NCBI GenBank assembly: GCA_017937305.1
Contig: JAGBDV010000020.1
Coordinates: 57,309 to 121,308 of the forward strand
DNA from: Bacilli bacterium
GTDB taxonomy: Bacteria > Bacillota_I > Bacilli_A > ML615J-28 > CAG-313
Length of the DNA stretch: 64,000 nucleotides
Direction of reading: 5' to 3'
The notes under the pieces were generated by a model, which worked only from the letters and a program-made list of their open reading frames with translations, was not told where the DNA came from and ran no database searches. Shown here piece by piece: positions 1 through 24,240 of the stretch (its first letter is position 1; each line of letters opens with the position of its first letter). A program made the translations under genes and the position numbers.

Positions 1-3000
1 GCGTTACTGTATTATCAAGTGCATTACCTGAAATTGTCTTTACAGAATATAGCCCTAACATGTTAAAAGGTGCTAGTCAAACTATTGGTTATAAGTTTAA
101 TCCAATTTATACTGATGCACAAGTAAGATGGGAATCTGCTAACCCAGATGTTGCAGTAGTTGACGAAAATGGTAAAGTTACTGCTGTTGCTGTTGGTGAA
201 GCTACTATCATTGCTTATGCTACTGATGGTGTTGATGAAAAAGCATTCGTATTAAAATTAAGTGTTAGTGAAAGTGATTTTGCTATTGAATACGTATTAA
301 ATGGTGGTGTTAACTCTGAAGCTAACCCTGCTGGTTATAATACTTTAAATACTCCACTTGAACTTCAACCTGCTACAAAACTTGGTTACAACTTCCTTGG
401 CTGGTATGCTGATGAAGAATTAACTCAAGAAGCTGGTAAGATTGCTGAAGGTTCTACAGGTGATGTTAAAGTTTATGCTAAGTGGGAAATTGTTAACTAC
501 AACATCAATTATGATCTTGATGGTGGTGTTAATGCTGAAGGTAACCCTGCTACATATACTGTAGAAGATGAAATCGTTCTTGGTGAACCTACTAAAGAAA
601 ATCACTCATTCTTAGGATGGGTTGATGCTGAAGGTAACACTGTTACTAAGATTGCTAAAGGCAGTGTTGGTGATGTTGCTGTTAAAGCTACTTGGAAATT
701 AGATGTATTTAATATTTCTTATGATCTAAATGGTGGTTCATTTGTTACTGGATATCCTTATGCATCTCATGCAGAATTAGTTGCTGATTTCGTTGTTGAT
801 TTCAATAAACATTCAGGTAAAACTGTTGCTGCTGATGGTTCTGACTTCTTCGCAAGAAGCTGGATGGCTGATGGTTCAAGTGCTGGTTATAAGTTCTTAA
901 CAAGTGCTGAATATGGTGCTAAATGGAGTTGGTTAATAAAATTAATCAATGATGGACGTGTTGCTAGAGGTGCTGCTGAACTTCAATCTACTGATGGACA
1001 AGCTGAAGCTCGTGGTGAAGTTCATACATTCTTAAATTTAACTGGTACTGCTAATACAGCTGGTTATGGTACAGATCGTACTGGTTTAACATTTGAAGAA
1101 TATGCTCCTAAATATTTACCATGTGATCCAAGTATTCCTGCTGTTGTATATCAATATGCAGTAGGTGTTGAAACATTATTACCTCTTGCTCAAAAAGCTG
1201 ATCATGAATTTATCGGATGGAGTGTTGCTAAAGAAGAAACAATTACTACTTCTGCTAATAGCAACTTCTGGGGTAACTATGCTAACCATATCTTCCTATT
1301 TAAATCAGCTAATGATGCAAAAGCTAAATTCTCGTTCCGTGCTTATATTGCACGTCAAGAAGATGGCTCATACGTTGTAACTAAGATTCAACAATCTGGA
1401 GAAGTTTCAGCTGTTGAAGGAGATTATACTTTATGTATTTCTGATAGTTATGGTAAATATGCTGAAACTAAAGCATTTAGAGAAGCTATTCAAGTTGGTG
1501 ACATCGTTAGTTTCGATGGTGATCCTTCTACTGGTAATACAACAATTAGCTTAGTTAAAATCTATGATAAGATTTCTGCTGATCAAATTGGAGATCTTAA
1601 CTTCAAGGCTTTATTTGCTGAATTAAGAGATGATTATGAATTATCATATGAATTAGATGGTGGTAAACTTTCTGATGGTGCTCCTAAACAATATTTATGT
1701 TCAACAGGATTAAAATTAGAAATGACTGCTTCTAAACCTGGTTACAAATTCTTAGGTTGGAGCTTAAGTAAAGGTGGAGAAATTATTGAAGAAATCCCTG
1801 CTGGAACAAGAGATCCTCAAACATTATATGCTATTTATGAAGCTGAAACTTACAAGATTGAATATGATACTAATGGTGGTACATTCTCAGTTGATTCTGT
1901 AGCTTATATTTATGATAATTATGAAGCAATTGTTGCTGATTTCTTAGCTGATTACTCTGCTAAATATGGATTATCTGGCTTAACTGCTGCAAACTTCAAC
2001 TCTAAATCTGCTAACTATGGCCTAGCTGCATTCTGGAAAGATGCTACTTTAGCTTCTAAGTGGGCTTGGTTACAAGAATTTATGTTAACTTACAATCCAA
2101 ATTACTCTGGTTTATCATACATGAAGAATGCTTCAAGTGCTGCTAATTACAACAAGTATTGGCGTGCTAACTTAGCTGCATTCCTACAACAAGGTAAAGT
2201 TACTTCTCCACTTTCTATGGACTTTACAGGACTTGACACTGAAGCTTGGTGGGCTGCATCAGTTCCAACTAAGATTGTTACAGTTGCTGCAAATCCTAAG
2301 TATGAATATACAGTAGAAGAACTTCCATTTGTTATTGAAGTTCCTATGCGTGATGGTGTAGAATTTGTTGGTTGGTGTTTCAATAATAAATATCGTGATG
2401 AATTCTTATCATTACCTGCTGGTACAGTTGGTGATATTAAACTATATGCTAAATGGTCTGATACTGAAGAAGTATATGAAACATTTGCTATTAATTATGA
2501 ACTAGACTTTGGACGTATTGAAGGTGAATATGTAAATTCTTATGTAGAAACAATCGGTGTTGCATCTCTTCCTACTCCTGTTAAAGTTGGTTATACATTC
2601 TTAGGTTGGACACTTGCTGCTGATTCTAGTGAATATGTAACTTCAATTGGTACAGAAGTTGTTGGTGATGTTACTTTATATGCTCAATGGGCAGAAAAAG
2701 AATCTTCAATGCCTAAAGTAATTAAAGTTGGTGCTGAAGAAGAATATAAGACTTTAGCTGATGCTATTGCTGCTGCTTCTAAGGGTGATACAATCGTACT
2801 TGCTGCTGGTGAATATGCTGGTGCTACAATTGATAAAGCATTAACTATTAAAGGTCCTAATGCTGGTGTTAACCCTAACACTGCAACTCGTGGTGATGAA
2901 GCTATCCTTTCTGGTGTATTAAAGATTTCTGCTGATAATGTTACTATTGATGGTATTGCATTAACTGGTGCTGGTAAACTTAAAGCTGATACTACTCAAA

Positions 3001-6000
3001 ATATTTCTAATTTAACATTTGTTAATATTTATGTATATGATTCAACTGTTAACGTTGGTAATGTAAGTACAGTTGCTCCATTTGAATTAAATGTTGATGG
3101 TTCTAATTTTGTTTCTGATGTATTAATCGCTAATTCTAAGATTATTACAAGCAACATTTCAAATGACCGTCCAATGATCGTTTATGCAACTAATATTAAG
3201 AACTTAACTATGGATAATAACTCATTTGTTGGTAGAAGAGTTAACTACAATGATGCTGTTAAACTTGGTAATGGTGCTTCTGTTGGTGTTACTGGTAATT
3301 TAATCATTACTAACAACTATTTTGAAAACTATGCTCAATACTTAATTTGGTTACAAAAATTTGGTGCTGTTAATGTATTAGTTGAAAACAATACATTCTT
3401 AAATAATGGTCAAACTGCAGGTTCTCACTGTGCTATCAGATTCCAAGCATATACTGGTGCTGCTACTGATGAAGTTAACTGTGAAATGTACTACAATACA
3501 GTTGATAATTCATACTTGTTATTAAAAGTTGATGCTGCTCCTGATGGTGCTAAATTTGTATGTAATTATAATACTGTTCAAAATAGTAAAGATACTCTTA
3601 TTGTTAAGAATGCTACTAAAGCTACTGTAACTTGTGATAGCAACTACTGGGCATTTGATTCTGTAACTGATGCAATGTTCGTTAATGCTACTCATACTAA
3701 CGATTTAACTGATGCTGAATCAATTCCTTCAAAAGAAGAATCTTGGTTAGAAGGTAAATTAATCGTTGGTGCTGATGCTGCTTATAAGACTCTTGCTGAA
3801 GCTTTAGCTGCTGCTAAAGAAGGCGATGAAATTTATTTAACAGCTGGTACTTATGATGAAGCTGTAACAATCACTGTTGCTAACTTAACAATTTATGGTC
3901 CTAACCATGGTGTTGCTGGTACTGCTGAACGTGCTGCTGAAGCTGTTCTTGCTCAACCTTTAACAGTTGAAGCTGCAGGATTTACAGTTGATGGTGTTCA
4001 ATTTGGTGCTGGATGTAATGTAGTTGTTAAAGCTAATAATGCTACAATTACTAATGTTCATAGTGTATCTACTAAGTTTGCAAAAGCTGGTGGAACTAAC
4101 CGTACTGCTGTTGTAACAACATCTGGTAAAGTTTCTAACTTTGAATTATCTAACTCATTCTTCAATACAGGTGCATCTTCTTACTTAAAAGGTGTATTTG
4201 CTAATGATGAAGCTGTTACAAATGCATTATTCAAGAATAACTTCTTTACTCATGAAAATACTGATAACACTTCAATTTCAGACTGTATCGCAATGTATAA
4301 CTCTGCTGGTGTTATTGAATTTATCGGTAATACATTTGAATGGGTAACTGATGACTGGTGTATTATGTTAGGTTCTACTGGTTGTGCTGCTGATGTTATT
4401 AACGTAATTGATAATAACTTCATTGGTAAGACTGTTGATGGATCTGAACTTTATACTTGTGGTATTATGCTACGTTGTGCTCCTGCTGGTTCAAAAGTTA
4501 ATGTAATCCATAACTATTTTGGTACATTAGCTGGTACTATTATTTCTGGTAGAAATTCAAAAGCTGGTGCTGAATATAATATTAAATACAATGTATTTGA
4601 AAATATGACTTACCGTCAAGATTCATCTAATATTGGTTCTGCTGCATTCAATTATGAAGGTAACTATTATGGTAAACCTGTTCACTCAAGTGCTACATAT
4701 TGTACAGACTATGGTACAGTAACTGATAAAGCTGTTTGTGATGAATTATATGTTGCTTGGAAAGTTGTTCAAGAAATTGGTACTCCTGAAGTTTATTCTA
4801 ACTTAAGTTATGAATTAAATGGTGGTACAATTGCTGCTGGTTATGACGTTAAATACTTAGAAGGTCAAAAAGTTGCTCTTTATGGTGCTACTAAAGAAGG
4901 TTATAAATTCTTAGGTTGGTCATTAGATGCTGAAGGAACAAAAGTTTATAAAGAAATCCAAAAAGATTGGACTGGCGATATCAAACTTTATGCTCAATAT
5001 GCTGAAATCTTTGACGTTGAATACGATCTAGATGGTGGTGCTGCTGAAGGTTTAGTTACATCTGCTGTTGATGGTACTAAAGTTGAACTTCCTACTCCTG
5101 AAAAATACGGTCACATCTTCTTAGGATGGACTTTAGAAAAAGGAACTGAAGATTATATTAAGAGTGTTGTTGTTACTGCTGATACTAAACTTTATGCTAA
5201 TTGGTTAGAAGCTACATTCTTCTATGTAGATTATGAACTAAATGGTGGTAGTATCTTATATGCTTCAAGAGATGCATTAATCGCTGATTGGCTAGTAGAC
5301 TACAACCTAGTATTAGGTAAGAGCTATGCTTCTACTGCTGATATCGCTACAGGTAACTTTGCTGATATCGATTATCATACATTCTTAGATTCTAAGACTG
5401 TTCTTAACAATGGTCAAACTCCAAGAGAAAAATGGTTATGGTTAGCTGAATACTTATATGAATTATCTGTAAGAGATGTTGCTTCTAATAACTGTAACGT
5501 TCTTGGTTTAAGAGCTTTAATTAATCAAACTGGTTATAGTGGTGATGCTATTTATGGTGTATCTTATGCATTCCGTGCATTCTTATTAGGTAGAACAATT
5601 CGTCCTAATTCAAGTTATACTTCAGTTGACCATTCAGTTTATGAAAATGCTAATGGTTTCTGGGCTAAATTAAGTGCTTCTGAACCTAAGCATTATGGAT
5701 ACTATGAAGAAACAGTATTACCTGCTGCTAACTTAGAAAATTACAAGTTTGCTGGTTGGTATAAAGATGCTGAATTCACTGGTGAACCTGTTACTAAGGT
5801 TTCTCATGCTGATGATGGATTAAAACTTTATGCTAAATTCGTTGAAGCTACTCCTGTAACAAGTGTAACTATTGATAATAAATTTGCTGAAATGAAGAGA
5901 TTTGAAACTTACCAATTAACTTGGACAGTTAATCCTTCTGATGCAAGCATCCAACAAGTTGCATTCGCATCAAGCAATCCTGAAGTTGCTAGTGTTGATG

Positions 6001-7556
6001 ATAAAGGTTTAATCACAGCAGTTGCTGATGGTAAGACTACTATTACAATTACTTCTAAATCTGCATCTGGTGCAAAAGATTCATTCGAATTAGTTGTTTA
6101 CTCTCCAGATCATTTCGAAATTGCTTATGAAACAGAAAGTTATGTTGCAATTGATGGTACAGTTAACTTACTTGCTGAATACATCAAACGTGATGGTTCT
6201 AAAGAAGCTCTAACTTGGTCTTCTGTAACTCCTGAAATTGCTACAGTTGATGCTAATGGTAAAGTTACTGGTGTTAATGCTGGTGTTGCTACTATTCGTG
6301 TAGCTGTTACAAGCAATACTGAAATCTATCAAGATTTCGTTGTAACTGTTCTTGAAGCTGAAGTTTCTGAAGCAGTTCAACATGTTATTGATGCTCATGA
6401 AAGTAATGTATTTACTAGATACGATTTAGGTATTGGTGCTGGCTCTGCTCCTGCATACTATGCTGATATCTTTGGATCAATTAGTAAGATTCTTTACAAT
6501 CAACCATTAGTAATTGATGAACAATTCAAATCTGCTGGTGATGCTACTGGTAACTACTATGTAAATGAAGGTATCGAATTCGTTACTGTTCACTACACAG
6601 GTAATATGGCTCCTGGTTCAACAGCTAAAGCTAATGCTAATTACTTCGTTCAAGCTTCAAGTGGTGTATCTATCCACTATGTTACTGGTAATGATGGTGT
6701 TTATAGCTGCTTAAGCCACGATAAAGGTGCATGGCATGCTGGTGACTCTGGTGCTTACTCTACTGTTGGTGCATTCAAGTGGATGCCTACAGGTGTTATG
6801 TATGATGATTGTGATCTATTAAAAGTTAAATTCACTGCTTCTGATGACTTCTATTATGAAATCAATGGTAAGAAGACAACAATTCCACTACCTAAGACTT
6901 ATAATCATAAAGAAAGAAATACTGATCACATTTACAATGCTGATGGTACAATTTCTGCTCAACCTGATTATGATAACTGGGGTCAAACATTTGCTAATAG
7001 AACTCCTGAAAGCTTCTTCAATGATCAAGACTTCCCTATCACTGTTGTAGATGGTGAATACTACATGGGTACAACTTGGTGGAGTTATGGTCAAGTTTAC
7101 GAAGGACGTATCTGTGGTTCTGGTGGTAATAGAAACTCTATCGGTATCGAATCTGCAGTTAACCCTGAATCAGACTTATGGTTAACATGGCAAAAGACTG
7201 CACAATTAGTTGCTCAATTATGTGTTCAATATGACTTAGGTCTTGAAAGAATTAAAGGTCACCACTTCTTTGATGGTAAGGATTGTCCTCAACCATTATT
7301 AGAAAATGATCTTGAAATTTGGTGGGAATTCATCGAATTAGTAAGATATGAAATGGCTCTATTAACAACATTAAAAGATGCTGGATTCAAACTTACTGTT
7401 GATGAAAACTGTGCTTCATTCGTTGGTGAAAACGGACGTATTGAATCTCAACCTGAATTTGCTCAAGTTATCGAATATACAGTAGAAGTTACTGTTGGTG
7501 ATAAAGTTGAAACTATCACTCTTGCTTCATCTGTAAATGGTATTTACAGCAAATAA
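1..7556 (+). CDS. Giant surface protein, 5'-partial (open to window edge). Big_2 Ig-like domain at N-terminus; many Listeria-Bacteroides (Flg_new) repeats; two tandem right-handed parallel beta-helix (PbH1) modules (~2715-3680, ~3760-4790); two Big_2 domains (5860-6350); C-terminal Amidase_2 (MurNAc-L-Ala amidase/PGRP) domain (~6360-7310).
   Basis: The 60..7556 frame stays open upstream to position 3 (TVLSSALPEIVFTEYSPNM looks like Big_2). YxLNGG...GYxFxGW repeat units recur throughout. The YKTLA(D/E)A(I/L)AAAxxGDxIxLxAGxY beta-helix starts occur twice. The amidase region carries AWHAG, NSIGIE and HHF..GKDCP motifs. Confidence 0.8.
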   Translation, partial: VTVLSSALPEIVFTEYSPNMLKGASQTIGYKFNPIYTDAQVRWESANPDVAVVDENGKVTAVAVGEATIIAYATDGVDEKAFVLKLSVSESDFAIEYVLNGGVNSEANPAGYNTLNTPLELQPATKLGYNFLGWYADEELTQEAGKIAEGSTGDVKVYAKWEIVNYNINYDLDGGVNAEGNPATYTVEDEIVLGEPTKENHSFLGWVDAEGNTVTKIAKGSVGDVAVKATWKLDVFNISYDLNGGSFVTGYPYASHAELVADFVVDFNKHSGKTVAADGSDFFARSWMADGSSAGYKFLTSAEYGAKWSWLIKLINDGRVARGAAELQSTDGQAEARGEVHTFLNLTGTANTAGYGTDRTGLTFEEYAPKYLPCDPSIPAVVYQYAVGVETLLPLAQKADHEFIGWSVAKEETITTSANSNFWGNYANHIFLFKSANDAKAKFSFRAYIARQEDGSYVVTKIQQSGEVSAVEGDYTLCISDSYGKYAETKAFREAIQVGDIVSFDGDPSTGNTTISLVKIYDKISADQIGDLNFKALFAELRDDYELSYELDGGKLSDGAPKQYLCSTGLKLEMTASKPGYKFLGWSLSKGGEIIEEIPAGTRDPQTLYAIYEAETYKIEYDTNGGTFSVDSVAYIYDNYEAIVADFLADYSAKYGLSGLTAANFNSKSANYGLAAFWKDATLASKWAWLQEFMLTYNPNYSGLSYMKNASSAANYNKYWRANLAAFLQQGKVTSPLSMDFTGLDTEAWWAASVPTKIVTVAANPKYEYTVEELPFVIEVPMRDGVEFVGWCFNNKYRDEFLSLPAGTVGDIKLYAKWSDTEEVYETFAINYELDFGRIEGEYVNSYVETIGVASLPTPVKVGYTFLGWTLAADSSEYVTSIGTEVVGDVTLYAQWAEKESSMPKVIKVGAEEEYKTLADAIAAASKGDTIVLAAGEYAGATIDKALTIKGPNAGVNPNTATRGDEAILSGVLKISADNVTIDGIALTGAGKLKADTTQNISNLTFVNIYVYDSTVNVGNVSTVAPFELNVDGSNFVSDVLIANSKIITSNISNDRPMIVYATNIKNLTMDNNSFVGRRVNYNDAVKLGNGASVGVTGNLIITNNYFENYAQYLIWLQKFGAVNVLVENNTFLNNGQTAGSHCAIRFQAYTGAATDEVNCEMYYNTVDNSYLLLKVDAAPDGAKFVCNYNTVQNSKDTLIVKNATKATVTCDSNYWAFDSVTDAMFVNATHTNDLTDAESIPSKEESWLEGKLIVGADAAYKTLAEALAAAKEGDEIYLTAGTYDEAVTITVANLTIYGPNHGVAGTAERAAEAVLAQPLTVEAAGFTVDGVQFGAGCNVVVKANNATITNVHSVSTKFAKAGGTNRTAVVTTSGKVSNFELSNSFFNTGASSYLKGVFANDEAVTNALFKNNFFTHENTDNTSISDCIAMYNSAGVIEFIGNTFEWVTDDWCIMLGSTGCAADVINVIDNNFIGKTVDGSELYTCGIMLRCAPAGSKVNVIHNYFGTLAGTIISGRNSKAGAEYNIKYNVFENMTYRQDSSNIGSAAFNYEGNYYGKPVHSSATYCTDYGTVTDKAVCDELYVAWKVVQEIGTPEVYSNLSYELNGGTIAAGYDVKYLEGQKVALYGATKEGYKFLGWSLDAEGTKVYKEIQKDWTGDIKLYAQYAEIFDVEYDLDGGAAEGLVTSAVDGTKVELPTPEKYGHIFLGWTLEKGTEDYIKSVVVTADTKLYANWLEATFFYVDYELNGGSILYASRDALIADWLVDYNLVLGKSYASTADIATGNFADIDYHTFLDSKTVLNNGQTPREKWLWLAEYLYELSVRDVASNNCNVLGLRALINQTGYSGDAIYGVSYAFRAFLLGRTIRPNSSYTSVDHSVYENANGFWAKLSASEPKHYGYYEETVLPAANLENYKFAGWYKDAEFTGEPVTKVSHADDGLKLYAKFVEATPVTSVTIDNKFAEMKRFETYQLTWTVNPSDASIQQVAFASSNPEVASVDDKGLITAVADGKTTITITSKSASGAKDSFELVVYSPDHFEIAYETESYVAIDGTVNLLAEYIKRDGSKEALTWSSVTPEIATVDANGKVTGVNAGVATIRVAVTSNTEIYQDFVVTVLEAEVSEAVQHVIDAHESNVFTRYDLGIGAGSAPAYYADIFGSISKILYNQPLVIDEQFKSAGDATGNYYVNEGIEFVTVHYTGNMAPGSTAKANANYFVQASSGVSIHYVTGNDGVYSCLSHDKGAWHAGDSGAYSTVGAFKWMPTGVMYDDCDLLKVKFTASDDFYYEINGKKTTIPLPKTYNHKERNTDHIYNADGTISAQPDYDNWGQTFANRTPESFFNDQDFPITVVDGEYYMGTTWWSYGQVYEGRICGSGGNRNSIGIESAVNPESDLWLTWQKTAQLVAQLCVQYDLGLERIKGHHFFDGKDCPQPLLENDLEIWWEFIELVRYEMALLTTLKDAGFKLTVDENCASFVGENGRIESQPEFAQVIEYTVEVTVGDKVETITLASSVNGIYSK

Positions 7557-7568
7557 TTAAACAAATTA

Positions 7569-7609
7569 AAATGGTTAATGCGAAAGCATTAGCCATTTTC
7601 TTTTTTTTT
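7569..7609 (+). terminator. Rho-independent terminator: 12-bp stem with GAAA loop, then a T-run.
   Basis: aatggttaatgc-gaaa-gcattagccatt followed by ttcttttttttt, directly after the giant-gene stop. Confidence 0.8.
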
Positions 7610-7619
7610 AAATTATAAA

Positions 7620-7628
7620 GTGGTATAA
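7620..7628 (+). promoter_or_regulatory. Extended -10 (TGgTATAAT) promoter element upstream of map.
   Basis: tggtataat lies 27 bp before the map ATG. Similar TGaTATAAT boxes occur at 14240, 35206, 36624, 44092 and 46044. Confidence 0.45.
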
Positions 7629-7654
7629 TATATAAGATAAAAGAGGTGAATATA

Positions 7655-8479
7655 ATGAATGAAGCTTATGAAAAGATTAAAAATCGTTTATTAGAATATA
7701 AAAAGAAAAACTATATAGTTCCTACTGAAAAAATGATTAAAACAAAAGAACAAATTGAAGGAATTAAGGCTGCTGGTGTAATTAATACGGCAATTCTTGA
7801 TATGGTGGAAGAAAACATTAAAGCTGGAATGTCTACAGAAGATATTAATAAACTTGTTCATAATTTTACTATTTCTCATGGGGCTATTCCTGCTCCACTT
7901 AATTATGAAGGGTTTCCTAAAAGTGTGTGTGTATCTGTAAACGATTCAGTATGTCATGGAATTCCATCAAAAAAATTGATACTTAAAAATGGAGATATTG
8001 TAAATGTAGATGTTACTACAATTTATAAAGGTTATTATGCCGATGCATCAAGAATGTATATTATTGGTGAAGCAAAGGAAAATGCTAAAAAGTTAGTAAA
8101 AGTTACTAAAGAATGTTTAGAACTTGCTGTTAATGCAATAGTTCCATGGGAGACTAGACTTGGTGATCTAGGCGATATTATTCTTACCCATGCAAGAAAA
8201 AATGGATATAGTGTAGTTAGAGAAATTGGTGGTCATGGTGTAGGACTTGAAATGCATGAAGATCCATATGTTTCTCATGTAGGAAAAAAAGGGACTGGAA
8301 TGCTAATTGTACCGGGTATGGTATTTACTATTGAACCAATGGTAAATGAAGGAAGTAGATTAATTTATCAAGATAGTAGAAATGGTTGGACTATTTATAC
8401 TTATGATGGAAAGTTATCTGCACAGTGGGAGCATACTATTGTTGTAACAGAAGATGGTTGTGAAATTATAACTCATTAA
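7655..8479 (+). CDS. map: Methionine aminopeptidase type I.
   Basis: Full-length MetAP-I fold motifs are present (HGIP, DxVNVDV, EIGGHGVGLEMHEDP, FTIEPM). ATG 7655 has a GAGGTG RBS with 6-nt spacing; the tracked start at 7646 is a GTG inside the RBS. Confidence 0.9.
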   Translation: MNEAYEKIKNRLLEYKKKNYIVPTEKMIKTKEQIEGIKAAGVINTAILDMVEENIKAGMSTEDINKLVHNFTISHGAIPAPLNYEGFPKSVCVSVNDSVCHGIPSKKLILKNGDIVNVDVTTIYKGYYADASRMYIIGEAKENAKKLVKVTKECLELAVNAIVPWETRLGDLGDIILTHARKNGYSVVREIGGHGVGLEMHEDPYVSHVGKKGTGMLIVPGMVFTIEPMVNEGSRLIYQDSRNGWTIYTYDGKLSAQWEHTIVVTEDGCEIITH

Positions 8480-19285: not shown

Positions 19286-19316
19286 AAAAAAGTCAATGAA
19301 TTCATTGACTTTTTAT
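19284..19316. terminator. Bidirectional terminator between convergent genes.
   Basis: A-run, then aagtcaatgaattcattgactt, then T-run. Confidence 0.75.
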
Positions 19317-20128
19317 TCTTTTGGTTCTTGATAACAAATACCAATATTTAAATCACCAAATTTTTTTGCGTATTGGTAAGTATTAGGACGCTCAAAGTTT
19401 TGGAAAGTAACAGGAATAGAATTTTCTGGTTTTGATTCCTCTGCAACTTCTAAATAATGATTGAATATTTCTTTTTCAAATACTGTCATTAGATGTCCTG
19501 TAATAAAATGTGTAAAATCAAGTTTCATTACGCGTTTTAACATGTTAATATAAGTTTTTTTATCAGTTGACTCTTCTAAGAACATCCATATCATAGAAAT
19601 AGCAGCATCTCCAGTAAATAAAAGTTTATGTTCATGTATTAAAAGGCCAATTGAACCTTTTGTATGCCCTTCCATACCAATTATTTCTACATGCATATTA
19701 CCTAAATCTAAAATAGTTCCATTATCTATTAATTTATAATTTGCTAGCTTTTTATTTATGTATTCAGTGCAATTATATGTTTCATCAATTAAACCTAATT
19801 TTTTTGCAGATTCAATATTTTTTGTTCGTTTTTCTATTCCATTATGTTTAATATATAATTGTTCATCAAGTCTAGGTATATAAACTTCATCAAATAAATA
19901 AGCACCTGATGAGTGGTCCATATGCCCATGTGTACATATAACAATGTATGGTGTATCAATATATGACTCTACTAATTCTCTAATATTAAATATACCGTAA
20001 CCACAGTCAACTACAATCGCTTTACTTTCTCCTTTTATAATAGAAAAGCAGACTCCTTGAGGGTCTCTAAAATGATATATAAATGGATATGGATTCATTA
20101 CATTAAAATTCATCATATAATACCTCAC
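19313..20128 (-). CDS. MBL-fold metallo-hydrolase.
   Basis: HGHMDHSSG motif and downstream His/Asp ligands (TGD, GH). Confidence 0.75.
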   Translation of the reverse strand: MRYYMMNFNVMNPYPFIYHFRDPQGVCFSIIKGESKAIVVDCGYGIFNIRELVESYIDTPYIVICTHGHMDHSSGAYLFDEVYIPRLDEQLYIKHNGIEKRTKNIESAKKLGLIDETYNCTEYINKKLANYKLIDNGTILDLGNMHVEIIGMEGHTKGSIGLLIHEHKLLFTGDAAISMIWMFLEESTDKKTYINMLKRVMKLDFTHFITGHLMTVFEKEIFNHYLEVAEESKPENSIPVTFQNFERPNTYQYAKKFGDLNIGICYQEPKE

Positions 20129-21913: not shown

Positions 21914-22516
21914 TTATTCCTTATTAATAATTTTATCAATATTATGAGAAAAATGGATAACTTTAGGATTGTAAGCTAATATGTTATTCCAATCCTTTGT
22001 TAATGTTAAGTTATTTGGGTAAGCTTTAATATATTCATAAGGTTCTAGATCACCAACAAAGCAATTACCATCATCAAGTATTACTGCAATACTGTCTGTG
22101 CTGTGACTATTTGTTTTAATTATTTCTCCATTTATTCCAAGACTTTTTAAAAATGATCTACTCTTGATTGTTGTAATAATTAATGCGTTATTCTCATTTA
22201 TTGGTTTATATCTATTATTAGAATCTCTTTTAAATATTTCATCTGAAAAGTGAATGCTATTTAGCTGGTTGTCAACTAGAAGAAGCTTAATATTAAAATC
22301 CATTAATTCACTGATTAAACCGATATGATCTGGATGGTAATGTGTTGCGGTAACATAATTAATATCAGATACTTTGATATTTGCTTGTTTTATTGCTTTA
22401 AAAAATTCATTTAAAGTACCATAGATGTCTGTATCAATTAGTAAATTACTTTTTTCACCTTTTATTATATAAGTTTTTGTATTTCCATATTGTAGTAAAA
22501 TTATATTATTTTTCAT
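21914..22516 (-). CDS. MBL-fold metallo-hydrolase.
   Basis: TATHYHPDHIG motif. Confidence 0.7.
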   Translation of the reverse strand: MKNNIILLQYGNTKTYIIKGEKSNLLIDTDIYGTLNEFFKAIKQANIKVSDINYVTATHYHPDHIGLISELMDFNIKLLLVDNQLNSIHFSDEIFKRDSNNRYKPINENNALIITTIKSRSFLKSLGINGEIIKTNSHSTDSIAVILDDGNCFVGDLEPYEYIKAYPNNLTLTKDWNNILAYNPKVIHFSHNIDKIINKE

Positions 22517-22587
22517 AATTTCATTTTAACATAAAATAACTTGTTTTACATTTATAATGATTACTTTTTATTTTTTAATAAAAGAAA

Positions 22588-22614
22588 AAAATTGCATCAT
22601 TTAGATGCAAAATC
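22588..22614 (-). terminator. Minus-strand terminator (gcatctaaatgatgc hairpin plus T-run) at the end of the KilA-N remnant.
   Basis: On the minus strand: gcatctaaatgatgc followed by aattttttt. Confidence 0.55.
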
Positions 22615-22635
22615 TTATAAATTAGGCCTTAAAAT

Positions 22636-23026
22636 CTATAACTTAATTTCTGGAGAAGTCCATGAAGCAAATTCTAAAACTATATCCCTATGAGCATATG
22701 ACCCACCATTATATCTACCTGCTTTTACTTTTAGTCCTATAGCATTAGATAATTCAATTCATTTCTTTGGCGAAATTGTAAAAGCATTTTGGCAAGGTTT
22801 ACTTTTAAACCCCTCGAAATCGGTGGGTTTAAAAATTTTCATTATTAATTAATTCCCATAATTTTAAAAACCCAATTGTATCGACTCTTCTAATCCAACT
22901 AGCAATAACCATATTAGTGTCGTCATCATTCCTTATTTTTGCAATATCTGCTAAACTAATATAATCATCCTCATTGATTTGGACAATTGTTATTTCTTTA
23001 TCTTTAACAATTATTTTACTTATAAT
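22636..23026 (-). pseudogene. KilA-N domain protein pseudogene: three consecutive fragments in different frames, no ATG start, premature stops.
   Basis: Minus-strand translation gives ISKIIVKDKEITIVQINEDDYISLADIAKIRNDDDTNMVIASWIRRVDTIGFLKLWELINNENF*, then after a frameshift FKPTDFEGFKSKPCQNAFTISPKK*, then after another frameshift IELSNAIGLKVKAGRYNGGSYAHRDIVLEFASWTSPEIKL*. These are collinear with KilA-N N-terminal domain proteins. Confidence 0.75.
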
Positions 23027-23106
23027 TTATACCTCTTACCACCTATATTATGTAATAAAGTTGATTATTAATCAACTAATTTAACGAGAAAATAAGCCAT
23101 CAATGC

Positions 23107-23130
23107 TGACTTATAGACACATACTAATGC
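23107..23130. repeat. Direct repeat copy 1 (tgacttatagacacatActaatg); candidate distal att site of an integrated remnant.
   Basis: 22/23 nt identical to 24012-24034, which abuts and overlaps the tRNA-Leu 3' end. Confidence 0.6.
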
Positions 23131-23184
23131 CTAACTGCTACTATATCTATCTTTTTATGAGATGTGTGGGACTATAAGTCTTTT

Positions 23185-23448
23185 TTAAAATTTCTTTAAT
23201 ATGTCATGGTGACCGATATCAACTAAAATAATTAGTTCTTCATGTTCAAAATACCATATAATTCTTATATCCATATTAATGCTACTTTCATAAAGATCTT
23301 TTTGACCTTTTATCTTTTTTGTTCTTAATGATGGATGTAATACATTTTCCACAAACAACTTCATTTTATTTTGAAACTGAATTTGTTCATTATTAGTAAG
23401 ATTATTAAAAGCTTTTTTAAATCTTTCAGTATATGCTAATTTATACAT
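23185..23448 (-). CDS. Type II toxin, RelE/ParE superfamily.
   Basis: 87 aa with ...RIIWYFEHEELIILVDIGHHD, characteristic of RelE/YoeB-like mRNA interferases. Directly downstream of and 4 nt apart from the antitoxin gene. Confidence 0.65.
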   Translation of the reverse strand: MYKLAYTERFKKAFNNLTNNEQIQFQNKMKLFVENVLHPSLRTKKIKGQKDLYESSINMDIRIIWYFEHEELIILVDIGHHDILKKF

Positions 23449-23451
23449 AAG

Positions 23452-23718
23452 CTATTCCTTACTATCATCTTTAAGACTCTTTAATAAATCATCTACATTA
23501 TTAAATGTATTATATTCGAATTTTACATCCTCCCTCAATACTTGGATTTCTTCTGCTAATTTTAATATATATTCTTTAGGGTATACAGCGACAGGTTCAA
23601 GCTTAATACTACCATTTTCAATTGATGCTTCAAATTTATCTCCTTCTTGTAAATTTAAATTTTTTACAATTTCCTTTGGCAACGTGATTTGTGATTTCTT
23701 TCTTAATTCAATAATCAT
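23452..23718 (-). CDS. Type II antitoxin, AbrB/MazE/SpoVT-type looped-hinge helix DNA-binding domain.
   Basis: 88 aa beginning MIIELRKKSQITLPKEIVKNLNLQEGDKFE (swapped-hairpin AbrB fold motif) with an acidic C-terminal tail. Confidence 0.65.
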   Translation of the reverse strand: MIIELRKKSQITLPKEIVKNLNLQEGDKFEASIENGSIKLEPVAVYPKEYILKLAEEIQVLREDVKFEYNTFNNVDDLLKSLKDDSKE

Positions 23719-24011
23719 AATATCCTCCTTGTTGGAAATTCCTACTTTCCTACTATTATTATATCATACCTAAATAAAATTATCAACTATTTTAAATAAA
23801 AAAAGAATTCAAATCTTATTAACCGACTATTTTTCCAACATCTCTAAAATAACCTTTATTCAAATCCCTTTAATTGAACAAAAACTAACATATTCATAGA
23901 AAATAAAAAAATTGCTCCAAATACGGAACAAAATCTTTTAAATAGGTAAACCTAACAGGTTTTAACCTCTATATTTTCACTATAAACATTATGAATCAAA
24001 GATTCATATTA

Positions 24012-24035
24012 TGACTTATAGACACATTCTAATGG
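24012..24035. repeat. Direct repeat copy 2 (tgacttatagacacatTctaatgg), overlapping the 3' end of tRNA-Leu.
   Basis: See copy 1. An adjacent palindrome atgaatc-aaa-gattcat lies at 23988-24009. Confidence 0.6.
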
Positions 24036-24118
24036 TGCCAGTGGCGGGACTCGAACCCGCACGGTATTGCTACCAAAGGATTTTGAGTCCTTCGCGTCTA
24101 CCATTTCACCACACTGGC
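24033..24118 (-). tRNA. tRNA-Leu (anticodon CAA), 86 nt with encoded CCA.
   Basis: Reverse complement is GCCAGTG...; acceptor stem GCCAGTG/CACTGGC; anticodon loop CU-CAA-AA; long variable arm; T-arm GGTTCGAGTCC. Confidence 0.9.
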
Positions 24119-24240
24119 TTATATTATTATTATATCAAATATTTTAAGTTTTTGCAAGACAATTAAATAAGTAATTACTTTATATAATTATTTGATTGAA
24201 AAAAAAGTCTAAAAATGATAAAATAAGATGAGGTGATTAT

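Follow-up and report, generated by a model that had tools for sequence, protein, structure and literature searches.

A Putative Array of Two Recombinase-Less Gene Cassettes at the 3′ End of tRNA-Leu(CAA) in an Uncultured Bacilli Bacterium

The cassettes of integrons, including sedentary chromosomal integrons and clusters of attC sites lacking integrases (CALINs), are small (~1–2.5 kb) recombinase-less units with one or a few accessory genes, arranged in one-way, head-to-tail stacks at a fixed chromosomal docking point. Toxin-antitoxin (TA) cassettes are frequent among them, an imperfect inverted repeat spans each boundary, and the identity at the junctions is 2–3 nt. We observed the same properties at a tRNA-Leu(CAA) gene of a Bacilli bacterium, in a stretch of 64,000 nt (the window; contig JAGBDV010000020.1 of assembly GCA_017937305.1, positions 57,309 to 121,308), where two non-autonomous gene cassettes with site-specific insertion probably form a short array behind the 3′ end of the tRNA gene. 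Similar features are known from other systems. Xer-dependent pdif modules and integrative mobile elements exploiting Xer (IMEX) are, like the units described here, 1–3-kb modules that often carry TA genes and lack their own recombinase, the enzyme being encoded elsewhere, and their short sites have the same layout of arm, 6-bp spacer and arm. For some IMEX elements, integration by single-strand exchange is documented. Cis-mobilizable elements (CIMEs), as in the accretion model of ICESt1 and ICESt3, are likewise att-flanked tandem units without recombination genes at a tRNA-type site; they are the nearest formal category to the remnant of a prophage or integrative and conjugative element (ICE) that an earlier annotation made from the DNA alone (the sequence-only reading) had proposed for this locus. 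Tandem units past a tRNA-like gene with direct repeats of ~20 bp are also found in the ssrA islands of Dehalococcoides (McMurdie et al., 2011; PMC3146451). In these, the repeat is the 3′ end of ssrA, the crossover lies in the T-loop and only ssrA is targeted; in most of them a CcrB-like serine recombinase module adjoins attL, and some without integration genes are thought to be mobilized in trans or in cis. The tycheposons of Prochlorococcus (10.1101/2020.12.28.424599) comprise cargo elements and cargo-only satellites in tandem at several tRNA genes, forming hypervariable islands as here. Tycheposons differ by their tyrosine recombinases, partial tRNA duplications as att sites, larger size and use of one tRNA per integrase.

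The locus is best read as two cassettes in tandem behind tRNA-Leu(CAA), together with a piece of a further backbone. ARAGORN detected this gene as the sole tRNA of the window and Rfam concurred; the Rfam search matched only the tRNA. Repeat searches revealed a 23-bp direct repeat with copies at 23107–23129 and 24012–24034, which were 22/23 identical and 905 bp apart from start to start. With three or fewer mismatches, these were the only two copies in the 64 kb, compared with 0.00 expected (100 shuffles), and a chance origin was ruled out. ARAGORN and the repeat search thus confirmed the sequence-only reading as to the second copy and the overlap with the tRNA 3′ end, but the overlap is limited to CA/CCA (CCA at 24033–24035). 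The repeat is therefore unlike the att site, duplicated from the tRNA, of classical tRNA-targeting islands. It is a recombination-site sequence, namely the conserved left end (LE) of a cassette family whose units open with a 21-nt tip and close with a right end (RE). In the sense of the tRNA (minus strand), the order is tRNA...CCA, TTAGAATGTGTCTATAAGTCA, a 250-nt leader, the TA operon and GACTTATAGTCCCACACATCTCATAAAAAGATAGATATAGTAGCAGTTAGGCA, followed by TTAGTATGTGTCTATAAGTCA and KilA-N. The features are as follows.

24129–24157, minus strand: promoter-like site of the tRNA, TTGCAA-17-TATAAT with extended TG (consensus scan 10/12; position relative to the tRNA start)
24033–24118, minus strand: tRNA-Leu(CAA), the docking site, with the 3′ CCA at 24035–24033 (ARAGORN; Rfam RF00005, 58.2 bits)
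24012–24032, minus strand: LE tip copy 1, TTAGAATGTGTCTATAAGTCA, forming the repeat copy 24012–24034 with the CA of CCA (repeat searches)
23902–24032, minus strand: predicted LE structured-RNA module of ~130 nt, with two tip-built stems, a small hairpin and an intrinsic terminator (stem 23912–23931 and T-run) (RNA fold; covariation; terminator scan)
23805–23870, minus strand: conserved LE backbone segment with boxes GGGATTTGAA (23859–23868) and AAGATTTGAA (23808–23817) (LE alignments)
23758–23786, minus strand: putative cassette-internal promoter of the TA operon, TTGATA-17-TATAAT with extended TG (top promoter-like match of the region, 11/12)
23452–23718, minus strand: antitoxin of 88 aa with an AbrB/MazE/SpoVT-type DNA-binding domain (PF04014, TIGR01439)
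23185–23448, minus strand: putative toxin of 87 aa, RelE/ParE/YafQ superfamily (PF15738, PF05016, TIGR02385)
23128–23180, minus strand: RE of cassette 1, with the arm GACTTATAG-TCCC-ACACAT (23162–23180) and then the terminal ...ATAGATATAGTAGCAGTTAGGCA (23128–23150)
23128–24032, minus strand: cassette 1, a complete TA cassette of 905 nt, from TTAGAATG... to ...GTTAGGCA
23107–23127, minus strand: LE tip copy 2, TTAGTATGTGTCTATAAGTCA, which opens cassette 2 and forms the repeat copy 23107–23129 with the CA of the preceding RE
22636–23023, minus strand: KilA-N pseudogene, the decayed and 3′-truncated cargo of cassette 2 (conceptual translation compared with PF04383, E = 7e-13)
22580–22632, minus strand: fragment of an LE-backbone terminator module, CCTAATTTATAAGATTTTG-hairpin-CAATTTTTTT with the stem at 22592–22610 (repeat families; LE-backbone alignment with compensatory stem; terminator scan)

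Comparison loci from public metagenome or viral contigs are labeled L001, L016 and so on. The flank upstream of the tRNA in L016 was 99.87% identical to that of the window over 2,965 bp, and L016 therefore represents the same species. In L016, a single tip follows tRNA-Leu and the TA pair is absent. It reads tRNA...CCA/TTAGAATGTGTCTATAAGTCA (a slash marks the junction) and leads directly into intact genes for a 274-aa KilA-N protein and a 255-aa helix-turn-helix (HTH) protein, beyond which the same kind of right end (...ATAGATATCGTAGCAGTTTGGCA) is followed by unrelated DNA. The TA unit is therefore an insertion of 905 nt, and KilA-N/HTH is a separate unit with the same ends. This arrangement is the opposite of a region in which both repeat copies and the TA pair are ancestral. 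The view of the sequence-only reading that an islet was inserted between recombination sites was upheld, whereas its derivation from a prophage or ICE was not. With the same boundaries, the TA cassette recurred at tRNA-Lys(CTT) in L024, at tRNA-Leu(UAG) in L073 and at the RE of another cassette in L027. The copies were 90–97.5% identical at the nucleotide level (90% in both L024 and L073), the toxin protein was identical in L024 and L027, and its identical sequence is recorded on 22 contigs. Cross-phylum transfer is not claimed for L024, which has a Bacteroidota-like signal peptide; its flank has 32% GC, and almost the same tRNA-Lys is present in L058 and L077.

As the sequence-only reading had noted, only two open reading frames (ORFs), a TA pair, lie between the repeat copies; the antitoxin comes first, and 3 nt separate the 88-aa and 87-aa ORFs. 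The antitoxin scored above the curated cut-offs (PF04014, 39.7 bits vs. 24.7, E = 4.7e-10; TIGR01439, 33.7 vs. 28.3). The RelE/ParE-like toxin was aligned over its full length but stayed 2–4 bits under the cut-off in three models and below every curated cut-off (PF15738, 27.3 vs. 30, E = 4.5e-6; TIGR02385, 24.0 vs. 27.9, E = 4.1e-5; PF05016, E = 1.1e-3). The cargo thus has the layout of type II RelE/ParE-AbrB TA modules, antitoxin first and then a RelE/ParE-like toxin, and differs from them in that the putative toxin falls just below every family cut-off. The putative cassette-internal promoter sits 40 nt upstream of the antitoxin start. The RE arm of cassette 1 is an imperfect inverted copy of the LE tip, and the same RE also ends ~15 other cassettes. 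Cassette 1 is apparently intact and recently mobile, and it sits on top of an older cassette that has decayed. Its TA pair most likely serves the array as an addiction or stabilization module, by analogy with TA cassettes in chromosomal integrons.

The KilA-N pseudogene outside the repeat was confirmed, and it was found to have one frameshift rather than the two or more proposed previously. This +1 frameshift lies in a T-run near 22831–22835 relative to the intact L041 allele; further lesions are the loss of the start codon (ATA for ATG) and one in-frame TGA, and the gene breaks off near residue 128 of 274. Intact alleles, in which the 274-aa KilA-N gene is followed by the 255-aa HTH gene, are present in L016 and L041 and are 73–84% identical to the remnant at the nucleotide level. 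KilA-N is the first gene of a second cassette and does not belong to one element with the TA pair. In the window, cassette 2 lacks its HTH gene and RE. The array therein runs from tRNA-Leu through the TA cassette, the decayed KilA-N cassette and a 50-nt backbone-terminator fragment to the MBL-fold (metallo-β-lactamase-fold) and nitroreductase genes. The fragment at 22580–22632 apparently lies where a deletion joined cassette 2 to a third unit or to what had been the trailer of the tRNA ancestrally. Comparison with L016 shows a history in which the TA cassette would have inserted between the tRNA and a KilA-N/HTH cassette already present; the tip was therefore duplicated, producing the 23-bp repeat. 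By the same comparison, the older KilA-N cassette would later have decayed, its 3′ part being deleted into a further backbone unit. Relative to L016 and the related species L005, the window lineage also lacks TipAS and vWA genes located beyond the array. The remnant itself was only 77% identical between two strains of the same structure (L023:825–1352 vs. window 22600–23129), and its flanks were 98–99% identical, which suggests allelic replacement through recombination with other KilA-N cassettes. Many short-read contigs end within the backbone at window positions ~23925–23954, a pattern that further copies of the backbone in the same genome or community would produce.

To examine the distribution of the family, we scanned public metagenome contigs and viral contigs with an exact 19-nt tip pattern (18 fixed positions and one W), which is blind to divergent relatives, possibly including autonomous ones. 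The scan yielded 51 metagenome loci and one viral-contig locus, in which the tip pattern is exact by construction. The invariant 21-nt tip begins each member directly after ...CA, and the preceding CAT and following A of the tip were also conserved in all loci but L035. The sequences that precede the tip fell into the following types.

26 of 51 loci: the 3′ end of a tRNA or transfer-messenger RNA (tmRNA) gene, the TAG of the tip standing exactly two positions past the ARAGORN 3′ end (CCA-T-TAG)
10 of 51 loci: the common right end (RE1); L073 combines an RE1 junction with one at a tRNA
7 of 51 loci: a second right-end type, ...(G/C)ACACA, often preceded by 3–4 short direct repeats
7 of 51 loci: other ...CCA sequences, including a displaced 3′ piece of tmRNA and the 3′ terminus of a serine-recombinase gene
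1 of 51 loci: an atypical context (L035)

Ten isoacceptors served for docking, with the window and L016 included: Leu-caa, Leu-gag, Leu-tag, Lys-ctt, Ser-gct, Ser-gga, Glu-ttc, Arg-cct, Arg-ccg and His-gtg; tmRNA was used in addition. Docking at Leu-caa was seen only in the window and L016. Complete LE..RE units measured 0.9–2.5 kb and held 1–4 cargo genes, named partly by eye from motifs: AbrB-RelE and DinJ-YafQ TA pairs, Fic/Doc, KilA-N with HTH, and an AlbA_2-like regulator. Partially captured or larger units carried genes for a YhcG-type nuclease, a RhuM-like protein, GNAT acetyltransferases, an aminoglycoside phosphotransferase-like kinase, AAA ATPases, methyltransferases, lipoproteins and very large surface proteins. 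No recombinase was present in the complete single cassettes (the TA unit of the window, L016, L043, L062, L068, L073 and L082), and no autonomous parent with the same ends was found among the 52 tip-bearing loci, annotated phages and plasmids, and further viral scans. The LE backbone gave no meaningful match to annotated plasmids and phages, and a full-text literature search returned no description of such elements. These results suggest a cassette family that is apparently widespread and undescribed.

Shorter tip and RE patterns were also tried on viral contigs, where almost all matches were due to chance. An environmental phage lineage (L113:5109–5131; L091, L165, L200) has a 21/23 match to CA plus tip (CATTAGAATGTGTCTATAAGT) that overlaps the start codon of a small replication-module gene; this may be a coincidence. 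In L067 (307–680 and 5700–5790), a tmRNA gene is followed by a 5-kb island, a degenerate copy of the tmRNA 3′ end and, immediately after it, a tip. Apparently, a classical island entered ssrA there after the cassette had docked.

In most family members, the left end is a conserved backbone of ~250 nt that comprises the structured RNA with its terminator, T-loop-like boxes and the cassette promoter. The predicted fold of the LE module had an energy of −33.7 kcal/mol (z = −4.67). Across 35 distinct LEs, 98.6% of cells paired, compared with 32–54% when the partners were slid, and helices 3 and 4 showed compensatory changes. The invariant tip is paired through U-A/U-G and G-U/G-C alternations; the G-U pairs are valid on the sense strand only, which points to a structure of RNA rather than DNA. 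From its position, the site at 24129–24157 would serve as the promoter of the tRNA, and the LE RNA would be made from it as a 3′ trailer of the tRNA, stopping at the LE terminator, which would insulate the tRNA transcript. The boxes GGGATTTGAA and AAGATTTGAA, which correspond in reverse complement to the T-loop box of the tRNA (GGTTCAAATCC), might form a protein-binding site. KilA-N-type cassettes have only the 21-nt tip and a short terminator, without the backbone, and therefore at most ~40 nt seem to be needed in cis at the left. The RE is ~50–75 nt long and ends in ...CA. RE1 comprises an imperfect inverted tip copy (GACTTATAG-TCCC-ACACAT) and, 33 nt farther on, the terminal ...GTAGCAGTTAGGCA. 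The LE is invariant, whereas REs are more variable. A hairpin of RE and next tip did not reach significance when folded as DNA (z = −1.2), and it is disrupted in some REs. The DNA past the last cassette resembles a degenerate tip with a terminator (TTTTTGAAATCTATAGGTC...), as would be expected of the right arm of an attB site.

By analogy, the arrangement would work most like a chromosomal integron, but each defining integron feature that we tested failed. In integrons, IntI is encoded beside the array; here, no recombinase family was among the 25 Pfam families listed for the 42 ORFs of the window, in line with the integrase-free islet of the sequence-only reading, and tblastn seeded with a large serine recombinase and an IS110-family transposase gave zero matches in the window. 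Integron attC sites have R″(RYYYAAC)...R′(GTTRRRY) with the crossover G/TT at the outer edge of the right arm, whereas the boundary palindrome here, GACTTATAG(TCCC)ACACAT...ATGTGTCTATAAGTC, has no R boxes and its crossover CA/TTAG lies at the inner edge. A GTTAGGC in the RE is not conserved (GTAAAGC in L027). An attC identity was rejected on these three grounds: no R boxes, the wrong crossover position and no IntI. Furthermore, integrons use a single attI rather than the CCA end of any tRNA or tmRNA, and the present cassettes differ from theirs in the long conserved 5′ backbone with its own terminator and promoter. To our knowledge, integrons have been reported absent from Firmicutes, and the hosts of this family are low-GC gut Bacilli.

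The other systems differ in their ends and enzymes. Classical tRNA islands and prophages encode their integrase, and their repeat is a 3′ segment of the tRNA, typically 15–60 nt; here, cassettes 1 and 2 and the complete units of L016, L043, L062, L068, L073 and L082 encode none, and only CCA (3 nt) is shared. Unlike the Dehalococcoides islands, the present family has a repeat that lies outside the tRNA and belongs to the element, docks at many tRNAs and has no integration module. The TA cassette has the flanks of a CIME, being bounded by LE tip and RE with only TA genes inside; CIMEs, however, are decay products of a related ICE with shared att sites, whereas the family has no autonomous parent that we found and its units are uniform, small and numerous, with a dedicated conserved backbone. 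The pdif modules and IMEX elements target dif or pdif rather than tRNA ends, and the sites at the cassette ends are not full inverted pdif pairs. The likeness of the tip to a Firmicute dif site, such as that of Bacillus subtilis, appears limited to TAGAA.

The junctions with the tRNA, the RE and the DNA past the last cassette share only (C)A-T, the downstream sequences being TATTATAAATC..., TTTTTTGAAATC... and TTAAAGTAAATTG..., and a classical long identity segment is therefore excluded. Symmetric junctions of the form ..GACACA-TTAGAA-TGTGTC.. were found in L034, L037, L041, L042, L061 and L076; a 6-bp spacer separates the inverted arms, and the observed junction is the exact left edge of this spacer. 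From this geometry, we favor a trans-acting tyrosine recombinase as the likely enzyme. The cassettes would move by conservative site-specific recombination, with the enzyme supplied in trans. Strand exchange would take place at CA/TT, the left edge of the TTAGAA spacer, which is the expected cleavage point of a tyrosine recombinase on the left arm. A single strand pair may be exchanged and replication may resolve the intermediate, so that homology between spacer and target would not be required. The target would be recognized through features of all tRNA and tmRNA genes (the ...CCA end and perhaps the T-arm) together with a tip-like trailer. The RE/LE junction of an excised circle would read ...GTAGCAGTTAGGCA/TTAGAATGTGTCTATAAGTCATAATATG, and the joint without the TA cassette would read tRNA-CCA/TTAGTATGTGTCTATAAGTCAGCATTG.

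Several observations weigh against the reading as site-specific, non-autonomous cassettes. No recombinase is tied to the family, and the enzyme class and single-strand exchange are proposed from site geometry only. No excised cassette was present among circular contigs, and no circular form or excision product was observed. As the DNA past the last cassette resembles degenerate tips with terminators, part of the backbone could belong to the hosts, as a native repeat of their tRNA trailers, and not to the elements. The data come entirely from metagenomic assemblies, in which some junctions could be mis-assembled at repeats. Where recombinase genes do occur close to a tip, their presence looks incidental: in L034 and L042 the large serine recombinase is N-terminally truncated, the gene in L081 is interrupted by the tip, an IS110-type gene occurs in three loci, Tn7-like genes in one, and a tyrosine recombinase 7.6 kb away in one.

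The truncated serine-recombinase genes (L034:2417–3904, which equals L086:6001–7488, and L042:9038–10177) lack the catalytic N-terminus and share the internal start motif ..AQEESR... In L034, the gene continues a tail-fibre-like N-terminus to which it is fused, right after phage tail genes; these features suggest site-specific insertion into the gene in L034 and L042. Among viral contigs, the only relative of the L034 recombinase was the same contig. IS110-family (DEDD) genes lie within arrays on the opposite strand (L052:6544–7785, L078:3508–4677, oriented L080:534–1466); those of L078 and L080 stand ~275–505 nt upstream of a cassette RE, which recalls IS1111 elements that target integron attC. 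An IS110/bridge-RNA mechanism was rejected: the genes occur in only three related loci in the opposite orientation, and base-pairing with 10 different tRNA ends is impossible for an invariant LE. Tn7-like targeting was also rejected, as TnsB/TniB/TniQ-like genes (Tn7/Tn5053-type) occur in L057 only (oriented 4521–8372, reverse complement of the stored locus); they lie 1.2 kb upstream of the tip, and the left neighbor ends in ...CTCACCA. In L070 (oriented 634–4609, also reverse-complemented), genes for a P-loop protein, a Rep_trans-type initiator (IDWLSCTF motif) and the tyrosine recombinase mentioned above lie 7.6 kb upstream of the tip, a cluster that looks like a small integrated plectrovirus-like or rolling-circle element.

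We considered four other explanations. One needs no dedicated recombination: tip and backbone would be the native tRNA trailer and terminator, and cargo would be swapped by homologous recombination after transformation or other DNA uptake. The backbone is indeed long (~250 nt), conserved and useful to the host as a terminator of the tRNA transcript, the DNA past the last cassette is itself tip-like with a terminator, identical backbones enclose different cargo at tRNA-Glu between strains, and the diverged KilA-N remnant between near-identical flanks suggests allelic exchange. Such swapping leaves unexplained the first arrival, with base-exact junctions, at 10 tRNAs, tmRNA and non-tRNA ...CCA sequences, the presence at each cassette boundary of a conserved RE that closes with ...CA, and the backbone-less KilA-N-type cassettes, and we regard it as unlikely. 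Equally improbable are non-autonomous transposons moved by an HUH (IS200/IS605-like, IS91/Helitron-like) or DDE transposase. Orientation-specific insertion 3′ of a short motif (..CA/T) without evident target duplication, a conserved sub-terminal hairpin 11–13 nt inside the left end, the inverted tip copy at the right end and the contrast between invariant left and variable right ends would all agree with it, and AT or CAT at both junctions can be read as a 2–3-bp duplication. However, no HUH or DDE transposase is tied to the ends, those seen being secondary insertions of IS3-, IS110- and ISLre2-like elements; the G-U pairs of the hairpin favor RNA over single-stranded DNA; no IS200/IS605-type right-end hairpin was found, nor a Y1 gene in a crude motif search; and a 3-nt target motif alone cannot yield specificity for tRNA ends.

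Mobilization by the large serine recombinase of a helper element, as in Dehalococcoides ssrA islands or the staphylococcal cassette chromosome mec (SCCmec), is very unlikely. The junction identity of 2–3 nt would fit a 2-bp crossover, and large serine recombinase genes lie 0–2.4 kb upstream of the tip in L034, L042 and L081; yet the first two genes are truncated at the same internal residue and the third is cut by the tip. The dyad center AG lies 2–3 nt to the right of the junction, where targets have TT or AA, and an AG core is thereby excluded; only the palindromic AT fits all junctions, and it would not fix the orientation. Least probable is a single prophage or ICE that entered tRNA-Leu with its own integrase and decayed to att repeats, a TA pair and a KilA-N fragment: the repeats do flank a TA pair beside a tRNA gene, KilA-N domains are common in phages and this KilA-N gene is decayed, and the relative L003 has a classical integrase element in the same tRNA, but that element duplicates 56 nt where the present repeat shares just CCA with the tRNA, the TA unit is complete with both family-typical ends and recurs as a precise 0.9-kb cassette at other tRNAs, KilA-N and HTH form their own LE..RE unit in L016, and no member cassette has an integrase.

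Cassette-free and otherwise occupied versions of the tRNA region were seen in relatives. The upstream neighbors of tRNA-Leu(CAA) are kept in L001, L003 and L005. The classical mini-element of L003 (950–2460), in the same tRNA-Leu(CAA) of a related species, contains a tyrosine-integrase gene of ~285 aa and is bounded by the tRNA and the 56-nt copy of the tRNA 3′ half, which is 98% identical to the window tRNA; the variable arm of the resident tRNA differs. In the cassette-free L005 (9225–9340) and L001 (150–260), tRNA-Leu(CAA) is followed by its own terminator, a tRNA-like 3′ fragment (GGTTCAAGTCTCATCGTTACGCC) and a second terminator. These tRNA-like fragments look like scars of older integrations.

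The uncultured bacterium has a GC content of ~28%, and its nearest catalogued relatives are Erysipelotrichaceae and ‘Bacilli’ metagenome-assembled genomes with 79–85% protein identity. The genes adjoining the tRNA encode a 135-aa protein without a Pfam match and an acyltransferase; the remainder is ordinary chromosome with genes for pyrimidine synthesis, ABC transporters and similar functions. An ORF of 2,498 aa lies at the start of the window (60–7556), and large surface proteins with Listeria-Bacteroides repeats are cassette cargo in L034, L050, L052 and L078. Two MBL-fold hydrolase genes (21914–22516 and 19313–20128) had weak precomputed Pfam matches to the anti-Pycsar Apyc1 family. The former directly follows the backbone-terminator fragment and has no counterpart at that position in L005.

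The islet at tRNA-Leu(CAA) is reclassified, not as the junk of a dead prophage but as an intact TA cassette on an older decayed cassette. A wider and more tentative possibility is that the recombinase-less cassettes of uncultured low-GC gut Bacilli represent an undescribed class of mobile genetic elements. In this proposal, a trans-acting enzyme would dock them base-exactly onto the CCA of essentially any tRNA or tmRNA, building integron-like arrays of TA, defense and surface-protein genes, and the LE would also act as a structured RNA, transcribed together with the tRNA and perhaps involved in targeting or excision. If true, this would be an integron-analogous cassette-capture system in Gram-positive-type gut bacteria, for which we know of no such system. 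The recombination target would be a feature common to all tRNA genes, which bears on why tRNA genes are hot spots of accessory DNA. The responsible enzyme would have a compact site, a 21-nt tip and any ...CCA end, and could be useful as a tool for multi-site genome insertion.

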